DNA of 52,943 bases from Fidelibacterota bacterium (GCA_022567655.1 JADFGO010000002.1:1-52943); one strand, 5' to 3'; positions 6,244-43,067 are shown, counted from the first letter of the stretch. The notes: generated from the sequence alone by a model not told the origin. Numbers and translations are program-made.

Positions 6244-7656
6244 TTAAGTGTTAAGCCGAGACCGAATTGTCATCCACCGGAAGATAAAAAAAAGCATGAA
6301 CGACACAGCAAGCCCGGGGAATATCGGCTCTACCCCAAAAAGATAAAGCGGTTCAAGTTGGGAACCATTGTAGAAACCGATCATTAGCAAAACCGAAGAT
6401 ATGGTGAATGCGGAAAGCATTAACCAGAGTGTGTGATTCCCCAGTAAGCGATAGCGGGGGAAATATGTCGATACGACAGGAATCAGCAGTGCCGGTATAA
6501 GCACGCTCCCGAACGAGTACCATATCCCGATTACGGAGGGAATCAGGTATGAAATCACAATCGCTGTGATCAGCGTTATTATAATACCTATCTTTGTATT
6601 TGATACGCTGTCGTCCGCTCTATTTTTTCTGAGTCTCCAGATCAGATCTCTTCCGATGGTAGCTCCGGATATCAGCGTAAGACTGTCCACAGTCGACATA
6701 ATTGTTGACAGCATTCCGATAAAAAACAGACCCTTGGCGACGGGCGGTAGTAATGCCTCAGCCAAAAGCGGGTATGCCTGAACGGGACTTATTCCGGGCA
6801 GCAATGCTCTGGCATAAAGTCCGGCGCTGATGGTCATAAAGTCAAATAATACCCAGAAACCAATGGCGATGAATATCCCTTTGCGGGCTACGGATGGATT
6901 TTTCGCGGCTGCGCAGCGCTGGTGGAATGATGGATCCACAAGCGTCCACAGGGCTATAAAGAACCAGACGATTATGTATTCTATACTAATACTACCTTGC
7001 CATGTGAGATGAAGATTGGGGACGGATGAAGAAATATAACCTATTCCGCCGAGCTCACTGACGGCAAAAAACAGCAGCATAACGAACCCGGAGTACATCA
7101 AAACGAATTGCAATTTATCCGTTTGAGCCACGGCGCTGAATCCGCCGGAATAAATATATACTACCGAAAGCAGAGCCCCTATCACTATTGAGAGACCGAA
7201 GCTCCACCCGAATATAAGCTGAAGCAGAACTCCGAGCATCAAGACATAAGGCGCCGGTGAAGAAATGAGGAATATCAACAGGCTGCCGAATATGCCTGTG
7301 GCTTTCCCGAAACTTTCATACAATCTGTCGGGCATTGTAAGAGATTCTCCCTCTCGAATTTTACCCGCAAGCAAGACAGCGAAGAGAGCTGAAAAAATAT
7401 AAAAGGGAAAACCGAGAACAATCCAGGTGGAAACCCCGTGTTGATAAGAAAATTCGCCTATCCCCAATATGCCCCCGTAAAAAGTGACAACAAGCGTAGC
7501 CACGAATCCGGGTACCGTCAGGCGTCTTCCAGCCAAAAGAAAGTTCTCGGGATCGTTGTTTTTCTTCCTTCCTGCCCGAAATCCCATGAATACGACTGTC
7601 GAAAAATACAGGAATATCAGGATCATGTCGATTCCGCTGAAGGTGATTTTATCCAA
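6244..7656 (-). CDS. Sodium:solute symporter family (SSF) transporter, last gene of the TPP-riboswitch operon (candidate thiamine/precursor importer, ThiV-like)
   Basis: 470-aa multi-pass membrane protein with an SSF-like N-terminus (TM1 followed by NFLLAGRRL). The TTG start at 7656 overlaps the thiN stop; an alternative ATG lies at 7626. Confidence 0.8.
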   Translation of the reverse strand: MDKITFSGIDMILIFLYFSTVVFMGFRAGRKKNNDPENFLLAGRRLTVPGFVATLVVTFYGGILGIGEFSYQHGVSTWIVLGFPFYIFSALFAVLLAGKIREGESLTMPDRLYESFGKATGIFGSLLIFLISSPAPYVLMLGVLLQLIFGWSFGLSIVIGALLSVVYIYSGGFSAVAQTDKLQFVLMYSGFVMLLFFAVSELGGIGYISSSVPNLHLTWQGSISIEYIIVWFFIALWTLVDPSFHQRCAAAKNPSVARKGIFIAIGFWVLFDFMTISAGLYARALLPGISPVQAYPLLAEALLPPVAKGLFFIGMLSTIMSTVDSLTLISGATIGRDLIWRLRKNRADDSVSNTKIGIIITLITAIVISYLIPSVIGIWYSFGSVLIPALLIPVVSTYFPRYRLLGNHTLWLMLSAFTISSVLLMIGFYNGSQLEPLYLFGVEPIFPGLAVSFMLFFIFRWMTIRSRLNT

Positions 7657-8305
7657 CTATCGGTGTACCATCGCTTTTTTCGAATAGTTTGAACAGAAAT
7701 AATCCGTCTCCGAATACCTTGACAGTGACAGATGGTTCCGAGACTTGATTGCTGACTCCGAAGGGACCGAACGATTGCAGTTCCCCGTCAAGCTCCCACT
7801 TTAATCCTTTTGTGGTAACCCAGGATGAACCACCGAGAACCATGAGTGAAATTTTTCTTCCTATTTCCGCCTCAAAAGTCAGGTCCTTCAGCACGAATAC
7901 AGTTTCCGCGAAGTCGTCAAGGATAGTGAGACGGGCAAGTTGATCGTACCGCTTCAGCAAGCTCAGATTCGCGAGCGAATGGTCGATCTTTTTTCCTGTC
8001 GCGCCGAGGAGAACTATCTCATCCATACCCTGAGATATTTCATACTCGATCGCCTTCATACTGTCGGTCGTGTTCTCATCGGTATCTTCGATAATTTCTG
8101 TTTTATTGAATTTCTTAACGGTCGCCGGAAGAATAGAATCCATATCTCCGATAATAAGAACGGGTGAGTAACCGGTGTCAGTCAGGTGATTAGCTCCCCC
8201 GTCCGCGCAGACTATTCTTTCGGAGGAATCGAGCAGAGCCTTAATTCTATCATTGAGAATGAAGTCTCCGTTTCCAATAACAACCGACTTTTGTATGTCG
8301 GTCAA
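7649..8305 (-). CDS. thiN: Thiamine pyrophosphokinase
   Basis: 218 aa with TPK motifs CADGGANHL, IIGDMDS, TDSMKAIEY and GATGKKIDHSLANL. It overlaps the upstream receptor gene by 4 nt. Confidence 0.88.
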   Translation of the reverse strand: MTDIQKSVVIGNGDFILNDRIKALLDSSERIVCADGGANHLTDTGYSPVLIIGDMDSILPATVKKFNKTEIIEDTDENTTDSMKAIEYEISQGMDEIVLLGATGKKIDHSLANLSLLKRYDQLARLTILDDFAETVFVLKDLTFEAEIGRKISLMVLGGSSWVTTKGLKWELDGELQSFGPFGVSNQVSEPSVTVKVFGDGLFLFKLFEKSDGTPIVG

Positions 8306-10734
8306 AACTTGAGCGTGACAGTTATATATGCGTTTCTTAAGGCGGCGGGAATATATTCGGGAATAAATCCCTGATAGTAGTACACGTAGCCGCTGGTCTC
8401 ATATTTCGTATCAAGAATATTATTGACGTTAAGCTGGATTCGGATAGGAATAGCGTTTCCGGCGTTGTTATAGTCATAACTCAGGAAGAAATTAACAATC
8501 CTATGTGCGTTTATCGATAAATCAGCTGTTCCGGAATTGTCAAGAAACTGCCCACCCACAAACCGTGTATAAAGGAACGATGAGATTGTACTTCCTCTGT
8601 ACCCTACCTTAATTCCCGCGAGGTAATCGGGAAAGCCGGAAATTTTATTGCCGGAACGGTCTATCGGAAACAGCTTCCCTTCGATGTCATATCCCGGTTC
8701 ATTGTAACTGACAAAGTAATTATCGTTGAGACTAAAATTTCCGGAGATATACGCCCCGTTCGTTAAAGACCAGGAAGCATCAGCCTCAATTCCCCGGTGA
8801 ATAGACTTCACGGCGTTGTAGTACAGTCTTAATCCGATATCGTCCACCTGTCCGGTCGGAACTATCTCATCCCTGAAGTCCATATAGAATAAATTAAGTT
8901 TCAAAAATGCATTTGAGTTCCGCCATGCGCCTCCGAGTTCGTAATCATAGAGGGTTTCTTGTCCTATAAGCGGTTTGCTGAAGTTCGGTGTGCCGTCCGG
9001 GTTTAATTCAAAACGAGGTACGGCATAAGGGTCGTCGGCGTCATAAATGTCCGCGTCTCTCGGCTCGCGATTGGCAACGGAGAAATTGACAAATGCCGTT
9101 ATGCTGCTGTTCAGCCTGCGATTAATACCCATTCGGGGTGTGAGAAAGTTATAGTTCACACTGTATTCATAATCGTTTTTGAAGGCGCCTATCGGGTTCT
9201 GATCGAAATCATAGCCGATATGCTGATATTGAACGTCGAACATCAGGTCTGTATTTTCGTCTATACCGTATACTACGTGAGTGTAAATAGTGGAGGATTG
9301 TTTACCGGTTTCGTACCCGTAATATTTGTTGTTAGGCGGCGTTTGATTGTTCTCTTTTACCCAAATAACTTCACCCCAGTGCTTTGCGTTATAGAAGCTG
9401 AACTCTGCTCCCAATGCCAGCGACCAGCCGGCTTTCGTGAAAGTAAATCTGGGGAGCCATCCCCATTGTGATTTATCAACGTTCTTCTTTCGCACGAGGT
9501 CAGTGGTTTCAACACCAACGAGGTTATACTCGACAGGATTTCTGTCAGATTTATAATCCTGAAAGAAACCGTCGCCCTTTACATGGAAGAAGGTGTTCTC
9601 GAATCTGATTTGTTCATTTATTCTCCAGTCGTTGATTAACTGATAGTGGCTTTGTAAAAAATCGTCCACCTGCTCGTCGAAGAATTCATTTTCTTCGCTT
9701 GGCGAATAAAAATTTGAGCGGCGCAGATCGTCATCATCTAAGAGATCCTTACCGATACCGAACCATGCGAATTTTGCCACCAATGGTCCACCGAATACGT
9801 TAAACGTGGTCGTCATATCACGGTCATAGCGGCTGCCGGATAAAAAATACGACCATGAATCGACGCCGGAGTCTGTCCGGTATCCGTCCGTTCGTAATTT
9901 GGAAAATCTTCCGTAGGCGGAATACTTGTTTTCAATGTAGCCGGTTCCAAAAGAAAAATTTAATCTTCGCGTATTGTAACTACCGGACGTTCCTGAAAGA
10001 GTAATTCCCGGTTCTGTGCCGGCGCCTTTCGTCAGTATATTAATCGAACCTCCGATAGCGGCAGTCCCATATAGTGAGTTACCGACGCCTCTTTGAACCT
10101 GAACGTCTTGTATATTGGCGGAGAGGTCTGCTATATCATAAAAATAAGTCACGTGGTCTTCCGGGTCGTTCAGCGGAACGCCATTCAGGGTTACGGCAAC
10201 TCTTGTGGCGTCAAAACCCCTGATTTTTATCTCCGTGTAACCCATTCCGCTTCCGGTCATGGAATAGGAGTAGAGGCTCGGGATTTCGTCGAGGAGCATC
10301 GGGAGTTCCTGAGAGGAATATTTTTCGGTCAGCGTCCTTGAATCCACATTACTGAATGCTACCGGGGTTTTCCCGCTGATCGCCCGGGTTGCGCTCACCA
10401 CAACGTTTTCTCCTTCGAGTATCCTCGGATAAAGAGAAAAGAGCACAGAAAGAGCGGTCTGTCCGACCGTTATCTTTTGTTTCCGGACATCGTACCCGAT
10501 CACACCCGCGCTTATGGTGAATTCTCCGGCCGGCACGCCGCGAATAATGAATTGACCGCTTTCATTTGTGGCGGCGCCGAACGTAGTGCCTTCTATGAGT
10601 ACGTTAGCTCCAAAAATAGGCTTGTTATCTATGGCGTTTCTTACGCTGCCTGATATTTCACTGCTGATTTGAGCGTTGGAGAATATTGGAACGAGTGTAA
10701 TAATTACTCCGGTGATGATATTCAGATAATTCAT
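8302..10734 (-). CDS. TonB-dependent outer-membrane receptor (thiamine-regulated)
   Basis: It has the signal peptide MNYLNIITGVIITLVPIFSNAQ, a CarboxypepD_reg-like N-domain, a plug, and a beta-barrel ending YITVTLKF. The ORF-track start at 10809 would translate the riboswitch. The ATG at 10734 has GGAGGGAGG 4 nt upstream. Confidence 0.9.
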   Translation of the reverse strand: MNYLNIITGVIITLVPIFSNAQISSEISGSVRNAIDNKPIFGANVLIEGTTFGAATNESGQFIIRGVPAGEFTISAGVIGYDVRKQKITVGQTALSVLFSLYPRILEGENVVVSATRAISGKTPVAFSNVDSRTLTEKYSSQELPMLLDEIPSLYSYSMTGSGMGYTEIKIRGFDATRVAVTLNGVPLNDPEDHVTYFYDIADLSANIQDVQVQRGVGNSLYGTAAIGGSINILTKGAGTEPGITLSGTSGSYNTRRLNFSFGTGYIENKYSAYGRFSKLRTDGYRTDSGVDSWSYFLSGSRYDRDMTTTFNVFGGPLVAKFAWFGIGKDLLDDDDLRRSNFYSPSEENEFFDEQVDDFLQSHYQLINDWRINEQIRFENTFFHVKGDGFFQDYKSDRNPVEYNLVGVETTDLVRKKNVDKSQWGWLPRFTFTKAGWSLALGAEFSFYNAKHWGEVIWVKENNQTPPNNKYYGYETGKQSSTIYTHVVYGIDENTDLMFDVQYQHIGYDFDQNPIGAFKNDYEYSVNYNFLTPRMGINRRLNSSITAFVNFSVANREPRDADIYDADDPYAVPRFELNPDGTPNFSKPLIGQETLYDYELGGAWRNSNAFLKLNLFYMDFRDEIVPTGQVDDIGLRLYYNAVKSIHRGIEADASWSLTNGAYISGNFSLNDNYFVSYNEPGYDIEGKLFPIDRSGNKISGFPDYLAGIKVGYRGSTISSFLYTRFVGGQFLDNSGTADLSINAHRIVNFFLSYDYNNAGNAIPIRIQLNVNNILDTKYETSGYVYYYQGFIPEYIPAALRNAYITVTLKF

Positions 10735-10741
10735 TTTGCCT

Positions 10742-10814
10742 CCCTCCGCTGGTATTATCCAGATCAGGTTGTAAGGGTATGTTCTCAGGCGGTATGGAGG
10801 AACCGCCACCCCTG
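10742..10814 (-). promoter_or_regulatory. TPP (THI-box) riboswitch
   Basis: The minus-strand RNA reads GGGGUGGCGGUUCCUCCAUACCGCCUGAGAACAUACCCUUACAACCUGAUCUGGAUAAUACCAGCGGAGGGAGG. This contains the conserved CUGAGA and ACCUGAUCUGGAUAAUACCAGCG blocks, colinear with E. coli thiM. The 3' end merges with the SD of the receptor gene. Confidence 0.95.
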
Positions 10815-10827
10815 TTGTTTCTCTGAT

Positions 10828-10856
10828 AACTTAAGTTTTTAAATGCAAAGAAGCAA
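10828..10856 (-). promoter_or_regulatory. Putative sigma70 promoter of the thiamine-uptake operon
   Basis: TTGCTT-17 nt-TAAGTT on the minus strand, about 14 nt upstream of the riboswitch 5' end. Confidence 0.5.
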
Positions 10857-10866
10857 TACTCTGTTT

Positions 10867-11092
10867 TGTGCGGTCGGGACTTGCCCTCTTTTCAAAGGAG
10901 GGGATACGAAACCTCCTCCCTCGAGGGAGGTGTCCCGAAGCTTCGGGACGGACCTGCCCGACTAATGTCAGGCGGGGGGTGTGATTCTGATGTTTTCTTC
11001 AAAAATATCGTCACCGAACGATTACACCCCTCGTCCCGGCAGCTGCCGGGACACTCCCCTCAAGGGGAGAGAATCTGAGGTGCAGTCGGGGG
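10867..11092. repeat. Composite hairpin-mosaic element, copy A (right end truncated)
   Basis: Colinear with 11559-11812. The 88-nt core 10949-11036 matches 11654-11741 at 87/88 positions. It starts with TGTGCGGTCGGGACTTGCCC. Confidence 0.9.
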
Positions 11093-11103
11093 TTAACGAT
11101 ATG

Positions 11104-11133
11104 ACAAAAACCTCTTAAAAACCGTTTTAAGAG
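11104..11133 (-). terminator. Rho-independent terminator of the merT-like gene
   Basis: The minus strand reads CTCTTAAAA-cggt-TTTTAAGAG followed by GTTTTTGT. The stem is a perfect 9 bp, 47 nt after the stop codon. Confidence 0.7.
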
Positions 11134-11179
11134 TTAACACGTGCTGCCTGTACTCAGATGAGTAGAGGGAAAAAGTTAA

Positions 11180-11533
11180 TCAGCGATTATAGACAAACGT
11201 AACGACTTCAGGGAGGAGCTTAAAAGCGATTATCAATCCGTAAGAACTCCAGAGCACTGCCTTGCGCCAGTTACGTCGTTCAACGGATCTGCCCTCATCG
11301 GAAATTTTGACGGAGGAAGAGGCAGTTCCGTTTTTTCCATATTCCATGTAGTAGGCTGCACCGAGCAGTAGGATTGTAGCGGTTACATTATAAATTCTGT
11401 TCTCGGCAAACCACGGACCGACGTTGAGTCCCCCGAGCCCGATCAGGTTCAAAGTAGCGGGACCTACGCAGCAGAGCGTGGACATGAATCCCGTGACTAT
11501 CGCCGCCGTCGATGCAAACAAACTCCAGATCAT
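11180..11533 (-). CDS. MerT-like small membrane protein (N-terminal CC motif)
   Basis: 117 aa. FMSTLCCVGPATLNLIGLGG..PW aligns with MerT ILASTCCLGPLVLVALGFSGAW, and length and TM layout match MerT (116 aa). The cytoplasmic-loop Cys pair of MerT is absent. Confidence 0.55.
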   Translation of the reverse strand: MIWSLFASTAAIVTGFMSTLCCVGPATLNLIGLGGLNVGPWFAENRIYNVTATILLLGAAYYMEYGKNGTASSSVKISDEGRSVERRNWRKAVLWSSYGLIIAFKLLPEVVTFVYNR

Positions 11534-11558
11534 TTCAAATTTTCCATCTTACACTTTC

Positions 11559-11812
11559 TGTGCGAGTCAGGGCTTGCCCGACTTTACAAAGGAGGGGAAA
11601 CGAAACCTCCTCCCTCGAGGGAGGTGTCCCGTCCCGAAGTTTCGGGATCGGGACGGACCTGCCCGACTAATGTCAGGCGGGGGGTGTGATTTTGATGTTT
11701 TCTTCAAAAATATCGTCACCGAACGATTACACCCCTCGTCCGGCTGAGCCGGACACTCCCCTCAAGGGGAGAGAATCTGAGGTGCGGGTCGGGACAAACC
11801 CTGACTGCCACA
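11559..11812. repeat. Composite hairpin-mosaic element, copy B (complete, with inverted terminal units)
   Basis: It is a direct repeat of copy A. The termini GTGCGAGTCAGGGCTTGCCCGAC (11560-11582) and GTCGGGACAAACCCTGACTGCCAC (11788-11811) are inverted repeats of each other. The element begins 25 nt upstream of the merT-like start codon. Confidence 0.9.
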
Positions 11813-11855
11813 TGAGGATCAACTTGTATTTTCCATTAATGAAGCTAACAAGCTA

Positions 11856-12767
11856 CTATACCAGACTGAATTGAGGCGGGTCAGTAGTTAAATTCGCGCG
11901 GGCGCCTATCGGCAGCGTTACTCTTGTATCTATGTGACCATATGCGAAATTCATGACAACAGGGAAATTATACCCTTTAAGCGCCGAATCGAGGATAGGT
12001 TTGAACTCTTCAAACTGGTCGGCATCATCGGGGAAACAATCTTTGAACTCTCCGAGAACCAAGCCGGATATTTTATCAAAAACACCCTGATACCTGAGAT
12101 GATGAAAGTGCCTGTCGAGCCTTCCCGGGTTCTCTCCTAAATCTTCCAACACTAATATCGCTCCTTCCAAGTTCGGCATATAAGGTGTGCCGAAATAGGG
12201 AAGTAATACTGTAAGCGTGCCTCCAATTATGTTTCCGGCTGCCTGCCCATTCTTGTAGACGAGCAGCGGCTGATTCTTAGGGTTTGATATTGATGGACGT
12301 TCCATCAGAGTTCTCCACAGCATCTCCTCGGAAAAATTATCGAAATTTCCACCCATATCGCTTGCTACCATCGGTCCGGAATATGTTACAACACCGGATT
12401 TTGCCAACAGTGCAGCTGATAGAGCGGAGATGTCGCTGTACCCGACAAGAATCTTGGGGTTGGAACTTATCAGGTCATAGTCTAAGTGATTGAGGAGTCT
12501 TTGTATTCCGTATCCGCCGCGCACGCAAAAGAGCGCGTTGATTTCCGGGTCTTTCCAGAAATTTATGAATGAACTCAATCGCTCTTCGTCGCTGCCGGCA
12601 AGATAGCCGTCTGCGTTTGAGAGATTATCCGCTATTTTAACCATAAAACCTCGGTCGGCGAGATAAGCCAATCCGTTTTCGACTTTGTCCGAATCGGCGG
12701 CTGAGCAGGGCGCGATTACCGCGATGCCGTCGCCTGCCTTCAATTTAGGGGGCAGCTGATATTTCAT
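11856..12767 (-). CDS. ldcA: LD-carboxypeptidase (peptidase S66, muramoyltetrapeptide carboxypeptidase)
   Basis: 303 aa with the catalytic Ser motif VGYSDISAL, a C-terminal YGHID His motif, and S66 family length. Confidence 0.85.
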   Translation of the reverse strand: MKYQLPPKLKAGDGIAVIAPCSAADSDKVENGLAYLADRGFMVKIADNLSNADGYLAGSDEERLSSFINFWKDPEINALFCVRGGYGIQRLLNHLDYDLISSNPKILVGYSDISALSAALLAKSGVVTYSGPMVASDMGGNFDNFSEEMLWRTLMERPSISNPKNQPLLVYKNGQAAGNIIGGTLTVLLPYFGTPYMPNLEGAILVLEDLGENPGRLDRHFHHLRYQGVFDKISGLVLGEFKDCFPDDADQFEEFKPILDSALKGYNFPVVMNFAYGHIDTRVTLPIGARANLTTDPPQFSLV

Positions 12768-21894: not shown

Positions 21895-22592
21895 ATCGGC
21901 GGCCGGGCAAAGGCCCGGCTCCTGACGGGCTGCCGGATTCCCGCATATCTGTTCTCCTCCCTTGAGGGAGGTGTCCCGAAGCTTCGGGACGGCCACTCCC
22001 CTCGAGGGGAGAGGATTATCCTCCCTCTTTTCAAGGAGGGGGAAGGGCGTGGTTGTCTTCATTAATGCGGTCAGGGCAAGCCCTGACTCGCACGGTGCTG
22101 TCATTATGGGGTGTGAATACCGTCGGAGGCTGGGGAACGTTAAAGCCCATCCGTCTGGACGGCCAGCCCAACATCGATTTGGCGGGCAAAGCCGGGCAGG
22201 ACATTTTTGTCAGCTCTTCTGTCCGGATTTCTCAGAATGACAGCATTTGGTGTGGCGCGGTCACCCTGAACGCATGTCCGACTGCTTGCCAGGCGGGAAG
22301 TCGAAGGGTGACTGCGTTAATATGCTGAGGATAGATCGCAGACACTGATTCTCAATCATAAATGGCTGGGCTTTTATAAGGGAAATTACTCCTAAATCCC
22401 CTCTTTGATGGGATATGTAGGGGAGGGTTTGTAACCCTCCCGAAATATGCGGGCTGGTTATAAACCAGCCCCTACGGTGCAGTTACAAATAACTCGCAGA
22501 AAGCAGGAGTTGTCCATGTGTAATTCCCCACTTTTTCCCGGACAATTCCCCGCTTTCTTCGGGGTAAACGTGAATTGTCCCTACAGTTGGGG
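21895..22592. repeat. Intergenic hairpin-unit cluster 4 (largest mosaic array, ~700 bp)
   Basis: Contains at least 12 hairpin units that also occur in the other clusters. See findings for unit coordinates. Confidence 0.9.
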
Positions 22593-26701: not shown

Positions 26702-26796
26702 GTGGCAGTCAGGGCAAGCCCTGACTCGCACTTATAATTCTGCAGTTTAGAAGTCATGGGACGCAGATCTGCGTCCCCTACTTTCGTCCAGACGAA
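26702..26796. repeat. Intergenic hairpin-unit cluster 5 (solo units)
   Basis: Contains GTGGCAGTCAGGGCAAGCCCTGACTCGCAC (26702-26731), GGGACGCAGATCTGCGTCCCCTAC (26758-26781, GTAG head on the minus strand) and TTCGTCcaGACGAA (26783-26796). Confidence 0.85.
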
Positions 26797-41277: not shown

Positions 41278-41548
41278 GTGCGAGTTAGGGCTTGCCCTGA
41301 CCGCAATCCCTTACACACCCTCCCGAAATAGAATCGGGATAAACTTCCTCCGGAAGGAGTTCCTTCGGAACACCCCTCTTATTAGAGGAGAATAATCGGT
41401 ATTTTTTATTGGAAAACCACCCCTTGTGTTCCCCTCCTTGGGAAGGAGGGGATATGTAGGGACAACTCAAGAGTTGTCCACAGGTATTTACCCGCTTTTT
41501 TCCGGGCGATTCCCCGCTTTCTTCGGGGTAAACGTGAATCGCCCCTAC
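41278..41548. repeat. Intergenic hairpin-unit cluster 6
   Basis: It starts with GTGCGAGTTAGGGCTTGCCCTGAC and ends with the 45-nt two-hairpin unit at 41504-41548. It also contains AACCACCCCTTGTGTTCCCCTCCTTG..AAGGAGGGGA (also at 42243-42283). Confidence 0.9.
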
Positions 41549-41553
41549 AATAA

Positions 41554-42009
41554 CTAAATATTTTCGAACGTCTTGATAAGGATTTCCTTCAGCATTCTTC
41601 TTTCGCGGACTGAGAGTATCGATTCAAATTTATCTGTGACCTCCCGCTCTATTCGGGGGATCATCTTATCGGCGAGGTTCCTTCCCTTGTGAGTCAGATT
41701 TACCCTGTGGAAGCGTTTATCTTCCGGCGGGCTTTCGCGCGAAATGAATTCCTTTTCCAGCATTCTAAGGAGAACTCCGGACGTATTCCCTTTCGACCAC
41801 TGGAGTTTTTCCGTTATCCCCTTTTGAGTCAGCCCGTCGGGATTTACCCAGAGGAGCGCAAGAACCTCAAATTGAGGCGACGTGAGATTATATCTCTTGT
41901 AGGTATTGGCGAGTTTAGACTGCATCGCTGATTCGACGCGTGAGAGGTTTACCCACGCGAGCAGAGAATCGCTCACTTTTCTTCTTACCTGATTCTTTAG
42001 TAATTCCAT
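41554..42009 (-). CDS. MarR-family transcriptional regulator
   Basis: 151 aa with a winged-helix region (LTSPQFEVLALLW..GLTQKGITEKLQWSKGNTSGVLLRMLEKEFISR). Confidence 0.88.
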   Translation of the reverse strand: MELLKNQVRRKVSDSLLAWVNLSRVESAMQSKLANTYKRYNLTSPQFEVLALLWVNPDGLTQKGITEKLQWSKGNTSGVLLRMLEKEFISRESPPEDKRFHRVNLTHKGRNLADKMIPRIEREVTDKFESILSVRERRMLKEILIKTFENI

Positions 42010-42042: not shown

Positions 42043-42088
42043 CGTTTTGTCAAGTAAAATTTCTTTTAATATCCCTGTTACATATTAT
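42043..42088 (+). repeat. 46-bp direct repeat, copy 1 (marR-proximal promoter region)
   Basis: CGTTTTGTCAAGTAAAATTTCTTTTAATATCCCTGTTACATATTAT matches 42555-42600 at 42/46 positions. It contains a TTGACA -35 for marR on the minus strand. Confidence 0.9.
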
Positions 42089-42098
42089 GAAAAATATA

Positions 42099-42547
42099 GT
42101 GCGAGTCGGGGCTTGCCCTGACCGGTGAACAGGTGAGTCAGCATCATCGAAATCCATGACTGTCGCAAAGAGCGTGAACGCCCTTCGAGTAATAATCGTT
42201 GATCATATAACCCAGCCATAAATGGCTGAGCTAAAGAAATGAGAACCACCCCTTGTGTTCCCCTCCTTGCGTAAGGAGGGGAAGATTTATCCCATCTTCG
42301 ATGTGGGATACGTAGGGGAGGGTTTATTAACCCTCCCGCGTTAGAGGGCAGGCCCGCCTGGCCAGCTCGGCATCGGTCTGACGGGCAAGAAGTCGGGCAG
42401 GTCACAGACCTGCCCCTACCTTGACACACCCCGTTCGGCTGAGCCGGATGACCGGCACTCTTAGGTGGCGCAGTCACCGAAGGTGCCTGCGTTATACTAT
42501 TGTGAAAAGATCGCAGGCATCACGTTGCGTCATGATGACTGCGCCAC
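42099..42547. repeat. Intergenic hairpin-unit cluster 7 (flanked by the 46-bp direct repeats)
   Basis: It starts with GTGCGAGTCGGGGCTTGCCCTGAC and ends with the inverted GTGG-headed doublet at 42465-42547. It shares more than 6 units with clusters 3, 4 and 6. Confidence 0.9.
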
Positions 42548-42554
42548 ATTATAG

Positions 42555-42600
42555 CGTTTTCTCAAGTAAAATTTCTTTTAATATCCCTGTTGCGTGTTAT
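42555..42600 (+). repeat. 46-bp direct repeat, copy 2 (yjbQ-proximal promoter region)
   Basis: CGTTTTCTCAAGTAAAATTTCTTTTAATATCCCTGTTGCGTGTTAT. Its 3' end supplies TTGCGT, followed by 17 nt and TAGATT upstream of yjbQ. Confidence 0.9.
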
Positions 42601-42647: not shown

Positions 42648-43067
42648 TTGAAATCTTTAACTGAAAAATTGGTGTTCAACGTACCAACGAGGCGGGACTA
42701 TATTAATATCACTCCGCAGGTAGAAGAACTTGTGGAACGCTCAGACGTAATGGAAGGTTTAGTACTCTGCAACGCCATGCACATAACGGCTTCGGTCTAT
42801 ATCAACGATGACGAATCGGGCTTGATCGAAGATTATGACGAATGGCTCGAGCAGCTTGCCCCCCACGAGCCGGTAAGCAAATACAGGCACAACAGAACGG
42901 GCGAAGATAATGCGGACGCACACCTTAAAAGGCAGATAATGGGTAGGGAAGTTACCGTTGCCATCACGGACGGTAAACTCGACCTCGGACCCTGGGAACA
43001 GATATTCTATGCGGAGTTCGACGGCAGACGGCAGAAAAGAGTAATGATCAAAATCATAGGGGAATAA
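42648..43067 (+). CDS. yjbQ: YjbQ/UPF0047 family protein (secondary thiamine-phosphate synthase family)
   Basis: 139 aa with [28 protein letters not shown] and a GPWEQIF pattern. Confidence 0.85.

Follow-up and report, generated by a model that had tools for sequence, protein, structure and literature searches.

Two hairpin-rich repeats flank a small gene in the stretch analysed here, which we call the window: 52,943 nt from a Fidelibacterota bacterium (GCA_022567655.1 JADFGO010000002.1:1-52943), a deep-sea Marinimicrobia genome. The repeats, A (10868–11092) and B (11560–11811), are non-coding, colinear direct repeats that bracket a gene for a small membrane protein of 117 amino acids (aa), called the merT-like gene here. 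We consider it probable (roughly 70%) that A and B are local copies of a lineage-specific non-coding hairpin mosaic built around a palindrome, U1. They would be the Marinimicrobia counterpart to the repetitive extragenic palindromes (REPs), bacterial interspersed mosaic elements (BIMEs) and hairpin-forming REP doublets (REPINs), with the history proposed below. Comparison with relatives showed that the gene is ancestral and that the elements are later, highly variable arrivals.

Two hairpin mosaics and the U1 palindrome

The main features of the locus are:

10868..11092, plus strand: copy A, a 225-nt hairpin mosaic between the terminator of the merT-like gene and the promoter of the thiamine pyrophosphate (TPP) riboswitch
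10973..11033, plus strand: core module of A, GGGGGGTGTGATT...ATTACACCCC, which matches B at 11678–11738
11180..11533, minus strand: merT-like gene, a 117-aa small membrane protein with a Cys-Cys motif (LCCVGP) in the first hydrophobic segment, marginally MerT-like
11560..11811, plus strand: copy B, a 252-nt mosaic with the module order of A and U1 at both ends, the outer halves forming a 21-nt inverted repeat

The two direct repeats (225 and 252 nt) lie approximately 700 bp apart. The sequence-only reading had described two colinear copies in the same orientation, and these are real: 93 of 94 positions are identical between 10943–11036 and 11648–11741, a second segment (10888–10937 in A, 11582–11631 in B) is 96% identical, and a third (11049–11083 in A, 11751–11785 in B) is 100% identical. 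Its outer bounds, 10867 and 11812, needed a small correction: A starts at 10868 and B ends at 11811. The near-identity of the two copies extends over their interiors and not to their outer junctions. For the 23–25-nt module patterns taken from the repeats, 0 matches are expected in shuffled sequence. The interval between A and B holds only the 117-aa open reading frame (ORF) and a hairpin with a T-tract.

B is bounded by inverted terminal units, as had been proposed; its ends (11559–11579 and 11792–11812) form a 21-nt inverted repeat that is 81% complementary. It folds into a closed multi-hairpin structure with a terminal stem around six hairpins (−136.6 kcal/mol, z = −9.05). The fold of A is less tight (z = −6.33). 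The loss of a full terminus from A on its merT side was also seen correctly, since only a half unit, GTGCAGTCGGGGG (11080–11092), is left there.

Two independent assemblies (L001 and L002) have the same architecture without gaps; thus, it is not an artefact of the window. They differ from the window by 3–4 substitutions per 1200 nt, every one within the elements. Over the merT-like locus (10750–12250), L001 differs by 5 substitutions in 1500 nt, as compared to approximately 1.6% over the whole 6.5-kb alignment. This patchy divergence hints at a recently shared, recombined tract.

The modules of A, in plus-strand order, are:

modules 1–3: degenerate U1; AGGAGGGG/CCTCCTCC module; CCTCCC-TCGA-GGGAGG hairpin
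modules 4–6: GTCCCGA-AGCT-TCGGGAC hairpin; CCTGCCCGAC..GTCAGGCGGG hairpin; 55-nt Y-shaped core
modules 7–9: GTCCCGGC-AGCT-GCCGGGAC hairpin; CTCCCC-TCAA-GGGGAG hairpin; half U1

Every module is a DNA palindrome. B differs from A in three respects: it has a two-tier GTCCCG hairpin (11626–11653), a GTCCGGC-TGA-GCCGGAC hairpin replaces GTCCCGGC-AGCT-GCCGGGAC, and the core carries a single substitution.

U1, which serves as the terminal unit of the element, is a REP-like imperfect palindrome of 30 nt (GTGCGAGTCAGGGCTTGCCCTGACTGCCAC), and its reverse strand (GTGGCAGTCAGGGCAAGCCCTGACTCGCAC) starts with GTGG. To this GTGG head on one strand it adds a GC stem of 8 bp, a loop of CTTG and, near the foot, a two-base CG/GC mismatch that interrupts the stem. 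The window has 5 matches to U1, all intergenic, where 0.01 would be expected. U1 is not private to A and B and occurs as a solo unit at 22067–22093, 26702–26731, 41278–41303 and 42099–42124. Together with the CCTCCC, CTCCCC, GTCCCG and GTCCGGC hairpins it recurs at 21.9–22.6, 26.7, 41.3–41.5, 42.1–42.5 and 52.9 kb. Long intergenic mosaics with shared hairpins occupy 21.87–22.6, 41.27–41.55 and 42.09–42.55 kb and the end of the window. At least eight types of hairpin module other than U1, which have no GT[A/G]G head, are interleaved with it. Perfect GC-rich hairpins reach a tenfold higher density in intergenic DNA (4.51/kb) than in coding DNA (0.43/kb). One of the mosaics contains a shorter relative of the composite:

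21929..22093, plus strand: coreless version with the CCTCCC, GTCCCG and CTCCCC hairpins (21929–22025) ordered as in the composite and then a solo U1; lies within a 730-bp mosaic upstream of an RNase E/G-family gene

Across the window, L001, L002, L017, L019 and L020, the core composite itself turned up nowhere but at sites A and B of this locus, and an exact scan with a core 24-mer gave 0 matches in each of the GTDB representatives, the JGI metagenomes and IMG/VR. A protein-database search with a spurious 70-aa ORF that runs across copy A found no further copies called as genes.

The layout had been called that of a miniature inverted-repeat transposable element (MITE) or REPIN. The elements are indeed non-coding and REPIN/MITE-like. 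A self-contained, unitary MITE is not supported: the composite is a mosaic, and its modules differ between strains and recur separately elsewhere.

Two further observations concern the modules. A double mini-hairpin, TTCCGTAGGAACTCCTTCGGAGC, lies within a U1 loop in two different genomes (L014, approximately 2190–2250; L019, approximately 505–545; window, 41340–41375); this and the two-tier hairpin of B suggest that hairpins were inserted into hairpins. In addition, an 82-nt composite module occurs at 22504–22585 and 41468–41549 in the same orientation (85% identical), each time directly 3′ of the stop codon of a minus-strand gene. The two genes are unrelated, and the module may represent a 3′-end element common to both.

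The locus in related strains

The merT-like gene lies next to ldcA, its upstream neighbour (11856..12767, minus strand: LD-carboxypeptidase, Peptidase_S66). Site B is the spacer between ldcA and the gene, and site A is the spacer between the gene and the riboswitch. Relatives were found by homology to the 117-aa protein and, independently, to ldcA, which yielded 20 further contigs. In the distant relatives, the order is ldcA, 25–35 nt, merT-like gene, TPP riboswitch, TonB receptor. These comprise L003–L007 and L009, where the 117-aa protein is 62–69% identical, and L021–L027, which were found via ldcA rather than the gene (72–73% identical). In the contigs that include ldcA there is no element between it and the gene, and most have none after the gene either. 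Because the distant relatives keep the gene in the same order without adjacent elements, the gene is ancestral.

The sequence-only reading had suggested capture of an accessory metal-transport gene, an idea that by its own terms fails if relatives carry the gene in place without flanking elements. This is the situation in L004, L005, L009 and L026, where the gene follows ldcA after 25–35 nt. In L021 the spacing is the same and site B has no element, with hairpin modules downstream of the gene. A captured cassette should be missing where the elements are missing, and in none of these five contigs is the gene missing; in L021 and L026 it is uncalled, yet the sequence plainly contains it. The spacer between gene and riboswitch in L021 (6290–7480; also L022 and L023) holds hairpin modules and a 184-aa minus-strand ORF (6610–7164) with only a faint N-terminal similarity to ribbon–helix–helix (RHH)/antitoxin-like proteins. 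This is another site-A insertion, in a sister clade.

The resemblance of the protein to MerT is slight. It scores 12.6 bits against Pfam MerT (PF02411; cut-off 32.9), and the best NCBIfam match, merT_RC607, reaches 32.9 bits against a cut-off of 130 (PRK13751: 17.9 against 150; the MerT test was PF02411/NF010314). No Pfam family matched the 117-aa protein above threshold. Its likeness to Tn501 MerT extends over 36 residues only, and the part common to MerT is the CC-containing N-terminal hydrophobic segment. The two cysteines of LCCVGP are the only ones in the protein, so there is no second Cys pair. The gene is flanked by ldcA and a thiamine-uptake operon, with no mer or metal-resistance context. 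A genuine MerT is thus not supported: no curated cut-off is reached, and there is no mer operon around the gene. In this clade the gene is linked to ldcA, and its product is a small, conserved membrane protein.

Closer relatives, at 85–95% identity in merT-like gene DNA, differ from one another in module content. L017 (gene DNA 95% identical) has an un-nested B composite without the two-tier GTCCCG hairpin and with the base of A in the core. In L018 (90%), site B is empty and site A holds a different mosaic of approximately 500 bp. By gene identity L018 nests among element-bearing strains; it may have lost its B element by recombination between short flanking repeats or received an empty allele. 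L008 and L019 (86%) have a short element of 60–90 nt at site B, with junctions identical to those of B in the window. In L019 this element is a U1 doublet; that of L008 differs in the hairpin tip of its second unit. These inverted U1 doublets have a 22-nt linker (L019, 5–63; L008, approximately 2266–2340), and the linker recurs at site A of L019. Site A of L019 carries the core composite with the CCTGCCCGAC hairpin inverted and on the other side of the core; therefore, modules move or recombine independently.

On both sides of B stands TGATC(T/C), part of an imperfect duplication of approximately 20 nt that covers the initiation region of the gene:

11528..11547, minus strand: right copy, ATGGAAAATTTGAAATGATC, which includes the present ATG of the merT-like gene
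11817..11836, minus strand: left copy, ATGGAAAATACAAGTTGATC, the vestigial original TTG start, cut off from the gene by B

Both copies resemble the single-copy sequence ATGGTAAACAGATTATGATT of the outgroup L009, which has close variants in L021 and L026. The vestigial copy is retained in L020, a strain without the gene. Flank alignments for target duplications were convincing at 42043/42555 only, weak at B, and absent at A and three other mosaics. The convincing case is a 46-nt direct repeat (42043–42088 and 42555–42600; 42 of 46 positions identical, a score reached by 0 of 500 shuffles) around a 466-bp hairpin mosaic between a divergent MarR-family gene (41554–42009, minus strand) and a UPF0047 gene (42648–43067, plus strand). 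A long target duplication, possibly of a promoter or operator, seems to accompany the mosaic insertion at this position.

L020, found via ldcA, is a separate strain; the 3′ end of its ldcA is approximately 97% identical to the window and 96.4% to L017. The ldcA stop codon is followed by the left flank of B including the vestigial TTGATCC, one hybrid element, the right flank of A (CACAAAAC.AGTATTGCTTCTTTGCATTTAAAAACTTAAGTTA) and the riboswitch. The left part of the hybrid carries the B-type GGCTCAGCC hairpin, its right part the A-type GTATCC. Missing are the merT-like gene and its terminator, along with the A and B sequence between the crossover and the gene. The crossover is implied to fall in a 140-nt segment, core included, over which A and B share their longest run of identity. 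L020 appears to have lost the gene by recombination between the repeats, an ordinary repeat-driven loss that the order of its flanks and hybrid element supports. The earlier proposal was that the cassette could be gained or lost by recombination, with a single solo element as the expected deletion product; the hybrid element of the gene-less strain is such a solo element and speaks for loss. A frameshifted merT-like allele (P0024) also exists on one metagenome contig. Its first 57% is 97% identical, the remainder is out of frame, and it reflects either a sequencing error or a pseudogene. This allele and the L020 deletion suggest that the gene is dispensable in some strains.

In the sub-lineage of the window, hairpin modules accumulated in both spacers. 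From these variants we propose the following history. The first occupant of site B was probably a small doublet (U1-linker-U1) that entered directly behind codon 2, and this insertion would have come with the duplication of approximately 20 nt, regenerating the start codon (TTG to ATG). The duplication step is proposed because both copies are homologous to the single outgroup sequence; the shuffle test of the flanks is weak on its own. Site B would later have received a copy of the inner part of the site A composite, 55-nt core included, a direction we infer because L019 has the composite at A and only a doublet at B. Ectopic gene conversion, or else template switching, is the likely route, with the shared U1 ends as anchors. 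The copying would predate the split of the lineages of the window, L017 and L020. The resulting direct repeats could then serve as substrates for homologous recombination, and in the L020 lineage a crossover inside the shared core would have removed the gene and one repeat copy, leaving the hybrid solo element. The elements themselves are most likely selfish or neutral DNA, with possible side effects on the stability of transcript 3′ ends and on the coupling of ldcA and the merT-like gene. Candidates for their mobilisation are a Y1 transposase of the REP-associated tyrosine transposase (RAYT) type, which is the orthodox candidate, or a replication or repair process. An origin of A and B by tandem duplication of an element-plus-gene unit is less likely, given that dissimilar elements occupy sites A and B in L008 and L019, at unchanged junctions.

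Known repeat systems and alternative readings

Most characterisation of REP/REPIN-type repeats has been done in Proteobacteria, and for Marinimicrobia our literature search turned up no account of them. Among the GTDB species representatives, exact matches to a U1 24-mer occur in two Marinimicrobia genomes only: the metagenome-assembled genome (MAG) B25T3L8, with four copies on four contigs, and the single-cell genome MT.SAG.3, with two copies on two contigs. Each match adjoins similar hairpin mosaics. The same 24-mer gave 0 matches in the JGI metagenomes and IMG/VR; the JGI collection is apparently without this lineage.

U1 was compared to REPs and BIMEs as defined in PMC3333891. Like a REP, it is an imperfect palindrome in the range of 20–40 nt with a GT[A/G]G head at its 5′ foot. 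It also shares a CTTG loop and an internal mismatch near the foot with Pseudomonas REPs (PMC2817692), of which the RAYT-associated REP of P. fluorescens is GTGGCGAGGGAGCTTGCTCCCGCT (PMC2817692, Table 1). As with REPs and BIMEs, the units are strictly extragenic, occur solo, as inverted pairs with a short linker or in larger mosaics, and vary between strains in number and content at a locus (PMC3333891, PMC2817692). The inverted unit pairs of L019 and L008, and the termini of B that pair over 21 nt, are arrangements of the BIME/REPIN kind. As in REPINs (Bertels and Rainey 2011, PMC3116915), the U1-linker-U1 doublets and the paired termini of B would form one long hairpin, and presence or absence varies at orthologous sites. 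Unlike REPINs, B has approximately 200 nt of other hairpins where the 22-nt linker would be (PMC3116915). The sequence is unrelated to the REPs of Enterobacteria and Pseudomonas and belongs to another phylum. Also unlike known REPs are the interleaved modules without a GT[A/G]G head, the hairpins that appear to be nested in hairpins, and the absence from the window of a RAYT gene, the cognate Y1 transposase gene that REPs would flank: Pfam found no transposase, integrase or RAYT/Y1_Tnp domain in the scanned ORFs of the 53 kb. The copy-number threshold for REPs, more than 100, applies to a whole genome, and U1 was counted as 5 matches in the 53 kb here and as 4 and 2 exact copies on contigs of the MAG and the single-cell genome. 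Taken together, the repeats are a REP/BIME-like family in Marinimicrobia, of a known class, in a phylum for which the literature search found none. The L020 hybrid junction is likewise what would be expected of deletions mediated by REPs, insertion sequences (IS) or rrn operons, from a crossover in the longest identical stretch of the repeats. Nothing about it is unusual among known direct-repeat deletions, the case here coming from a metagenome scaffold only.

Several points weigh against our interpretation. Most modules have no GT[A/G]G head. The counts of U1 and the RAYT search cover 53 kb of the source genome. The direction of copying from A to B is a matter of parsimony over five short contigs, and the duplication at site B (15 of 20–22 positions identical) is weak in the shuffle test, being equalled in 20 of 500 shuffles. 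L020 is a 2-kb metagenome scaffold, and an assembler may join ldcA to the riboswitch across near-identical repeats; there is roughly one chance in four that the deletion was mimicked by such a collapse of the two repeats.

Of the other readings, one holds that the composite is a mobile MITE that moved as a unit, independently, into both spacers, its U1 termini being recognised by a transposase encoded elsewhere. The 21-nt inverted termini of B, its flanking TGATC(T/C) direct repeat, the empty site in L018 and the shorter version in the same order at 21929–22025 would all fit. A MITE family should, however, have many dispersed and near-identical whole copies, and the core is confined to two adjacent sites in the window and its relatives, with none in the three collections scanned. 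At A there is a half unit on one side and no detectable target-site duplication, and the module order differs in L019. In L008 and L019 a different short U1 element has identical junctions at site B, so that the junctions predate the composite. We regard this reading as unlikely.

More doubtful is a process that involves no RAYT-type transposase, in which palindromic modules are copied into or beside hairpins by replication or repair, duplicating 20–46 nt of the target. If it were true, the intergenic regions of Marinimicrobia would grow by an undescribed mechanism of templated hairpin accretion, which could regenerate gene starts and promoters at the insertion point.

A and B could also be a functional structured RNA, a cis-regulatory leader, a 3′-untranslated region (3′-UTR) element or a small RNA under selection on structure. 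The very low z values of both folds would agree with this, as would the single orientation of both copies relative to transcription and the one hairpin position that varies in stem sequence yet stays paired in A, B and L019. The modules are DNA palindromes, however, and such sequences pair on either strand by construction. Close strains differ in which modules they have and in how these are ordered and oriented, and a site can be empty, as in L018, or without any element, as in distant relatives. Rfam returned only the TPP riboswitch, both at gathering thresholds over the window and at permissive E-values over 10600–12000, with other matches far below threshold. A selected RNA is thus very unlikely.

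That the gene itself is a captured cassette bracketed by the elements, as first suggested, is refuted by synteny and highly improbable: the direct repeats around the gene, its absence from L020 and the frameshifted allele P0024 would suit a dispensable cassette, but the gene holds the same position in all more distant relatives (several of these loci having been found via ldcA rather than the gene), the vestigial start-region copy lies on the ldcA side of B, in L020 too, and the protein has neither a MerT-level score nor metal-resistance neighbours.

Among other known repeats, the pneumococcal BOX and Neisseria Correia elements are likewise non-coding, 100–250 bp long, strongly folding, modular and intergenic. 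They also lie near promoters and terminators and are able to alter the expression of their neighbours. Unlike these, the mosaics described here have no family-wide consensus and no fixed short target duplication, and their termini are an independent palindromic repeat.

Neighbouring genes, transcription and implications

Two further features border the repeats:

10724..10823, minus strand: TPP riboswitch (63.1 bits)
approximately 11101..11136, minus strand: terminator hairpin and T-tract, AACTCTTAAAA-CGG-TTTTTAAGAGGTT followed by TTTTG, read directly from the sequence

The riboswitch heads an operon (6244–10823, minus strand) that encodes a TonB-dependent receptor (8302–10734), thiamine pyrophosphokinase and a sodium:solute symporter (SSF) transporter. 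This thiamine-scavenging operon is conserved across the Marinimicrobia contigs that we examined. Copy A had been described as abutting the −35 of the operon. The riboswitch is real, and A ends approximately 11 nt from a plausible −35 (TTGCTT, 10856–10851); the promoter was not called by the consensus scan. Scans of 10650–11950 with σ70 promoter and terminator consensus patterns found no more sites than in shuffles, and they neither support nor exclude a promoter in B. The terminator attributed to the merT-like gene is readable as a hairpin with a T-tract but was not listed by the same scan. Its motif is kept in L008 (approximately 2768–2870) and L018 (approximately 638–745), where it is split by an extra segment of approximately 90 nt; the window has the short form. 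The extra segment is flanked by 13-nt imperfect direct repeats (AACTCTTAAAAAC/AACCCCTTAAAAG).

In relatives, the merT-like gene is almost certainly co-transcribed with ldcA. B lies close upstream of the start codon, as had been noted, with a measured spacer of 26 nt rather than 25. Where B is present, the gene must be transcribed either from a start within B or by read-through of its very stable structure. The rest of the window is an ordinary chromosomal region, with genes for ribosomal proteins L21 and L27, an RNase E/G-family protein, an Omp85/POTRA outer-membrane protein, LpxD, LpxC, an LpxA-like acyltransferase, 1-deoxy-D-xylulose 5-phosphate (DXP) reductoisomerase, GAPDH and enzymes of pantothenate synthesis.

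The locus reveals neither a new mechanism of gene capture nor a mercury-resistance cassette. What it shows is a REP-like unit with a rich hairpin mosaic in uncultivated deep-sea Marinimicrobia. Natural variants of the locus catch several stages: a site with no element, one with a small doublet, one with the full composite, direct repeats that have become homogenised, and a probable gene loss. On the practical side, such repeats break, and may mis-join, metagenome assemblies. The locus offers a compact example of selfish intergenic repeats reshaping the gene content of streamlined marine genomes.

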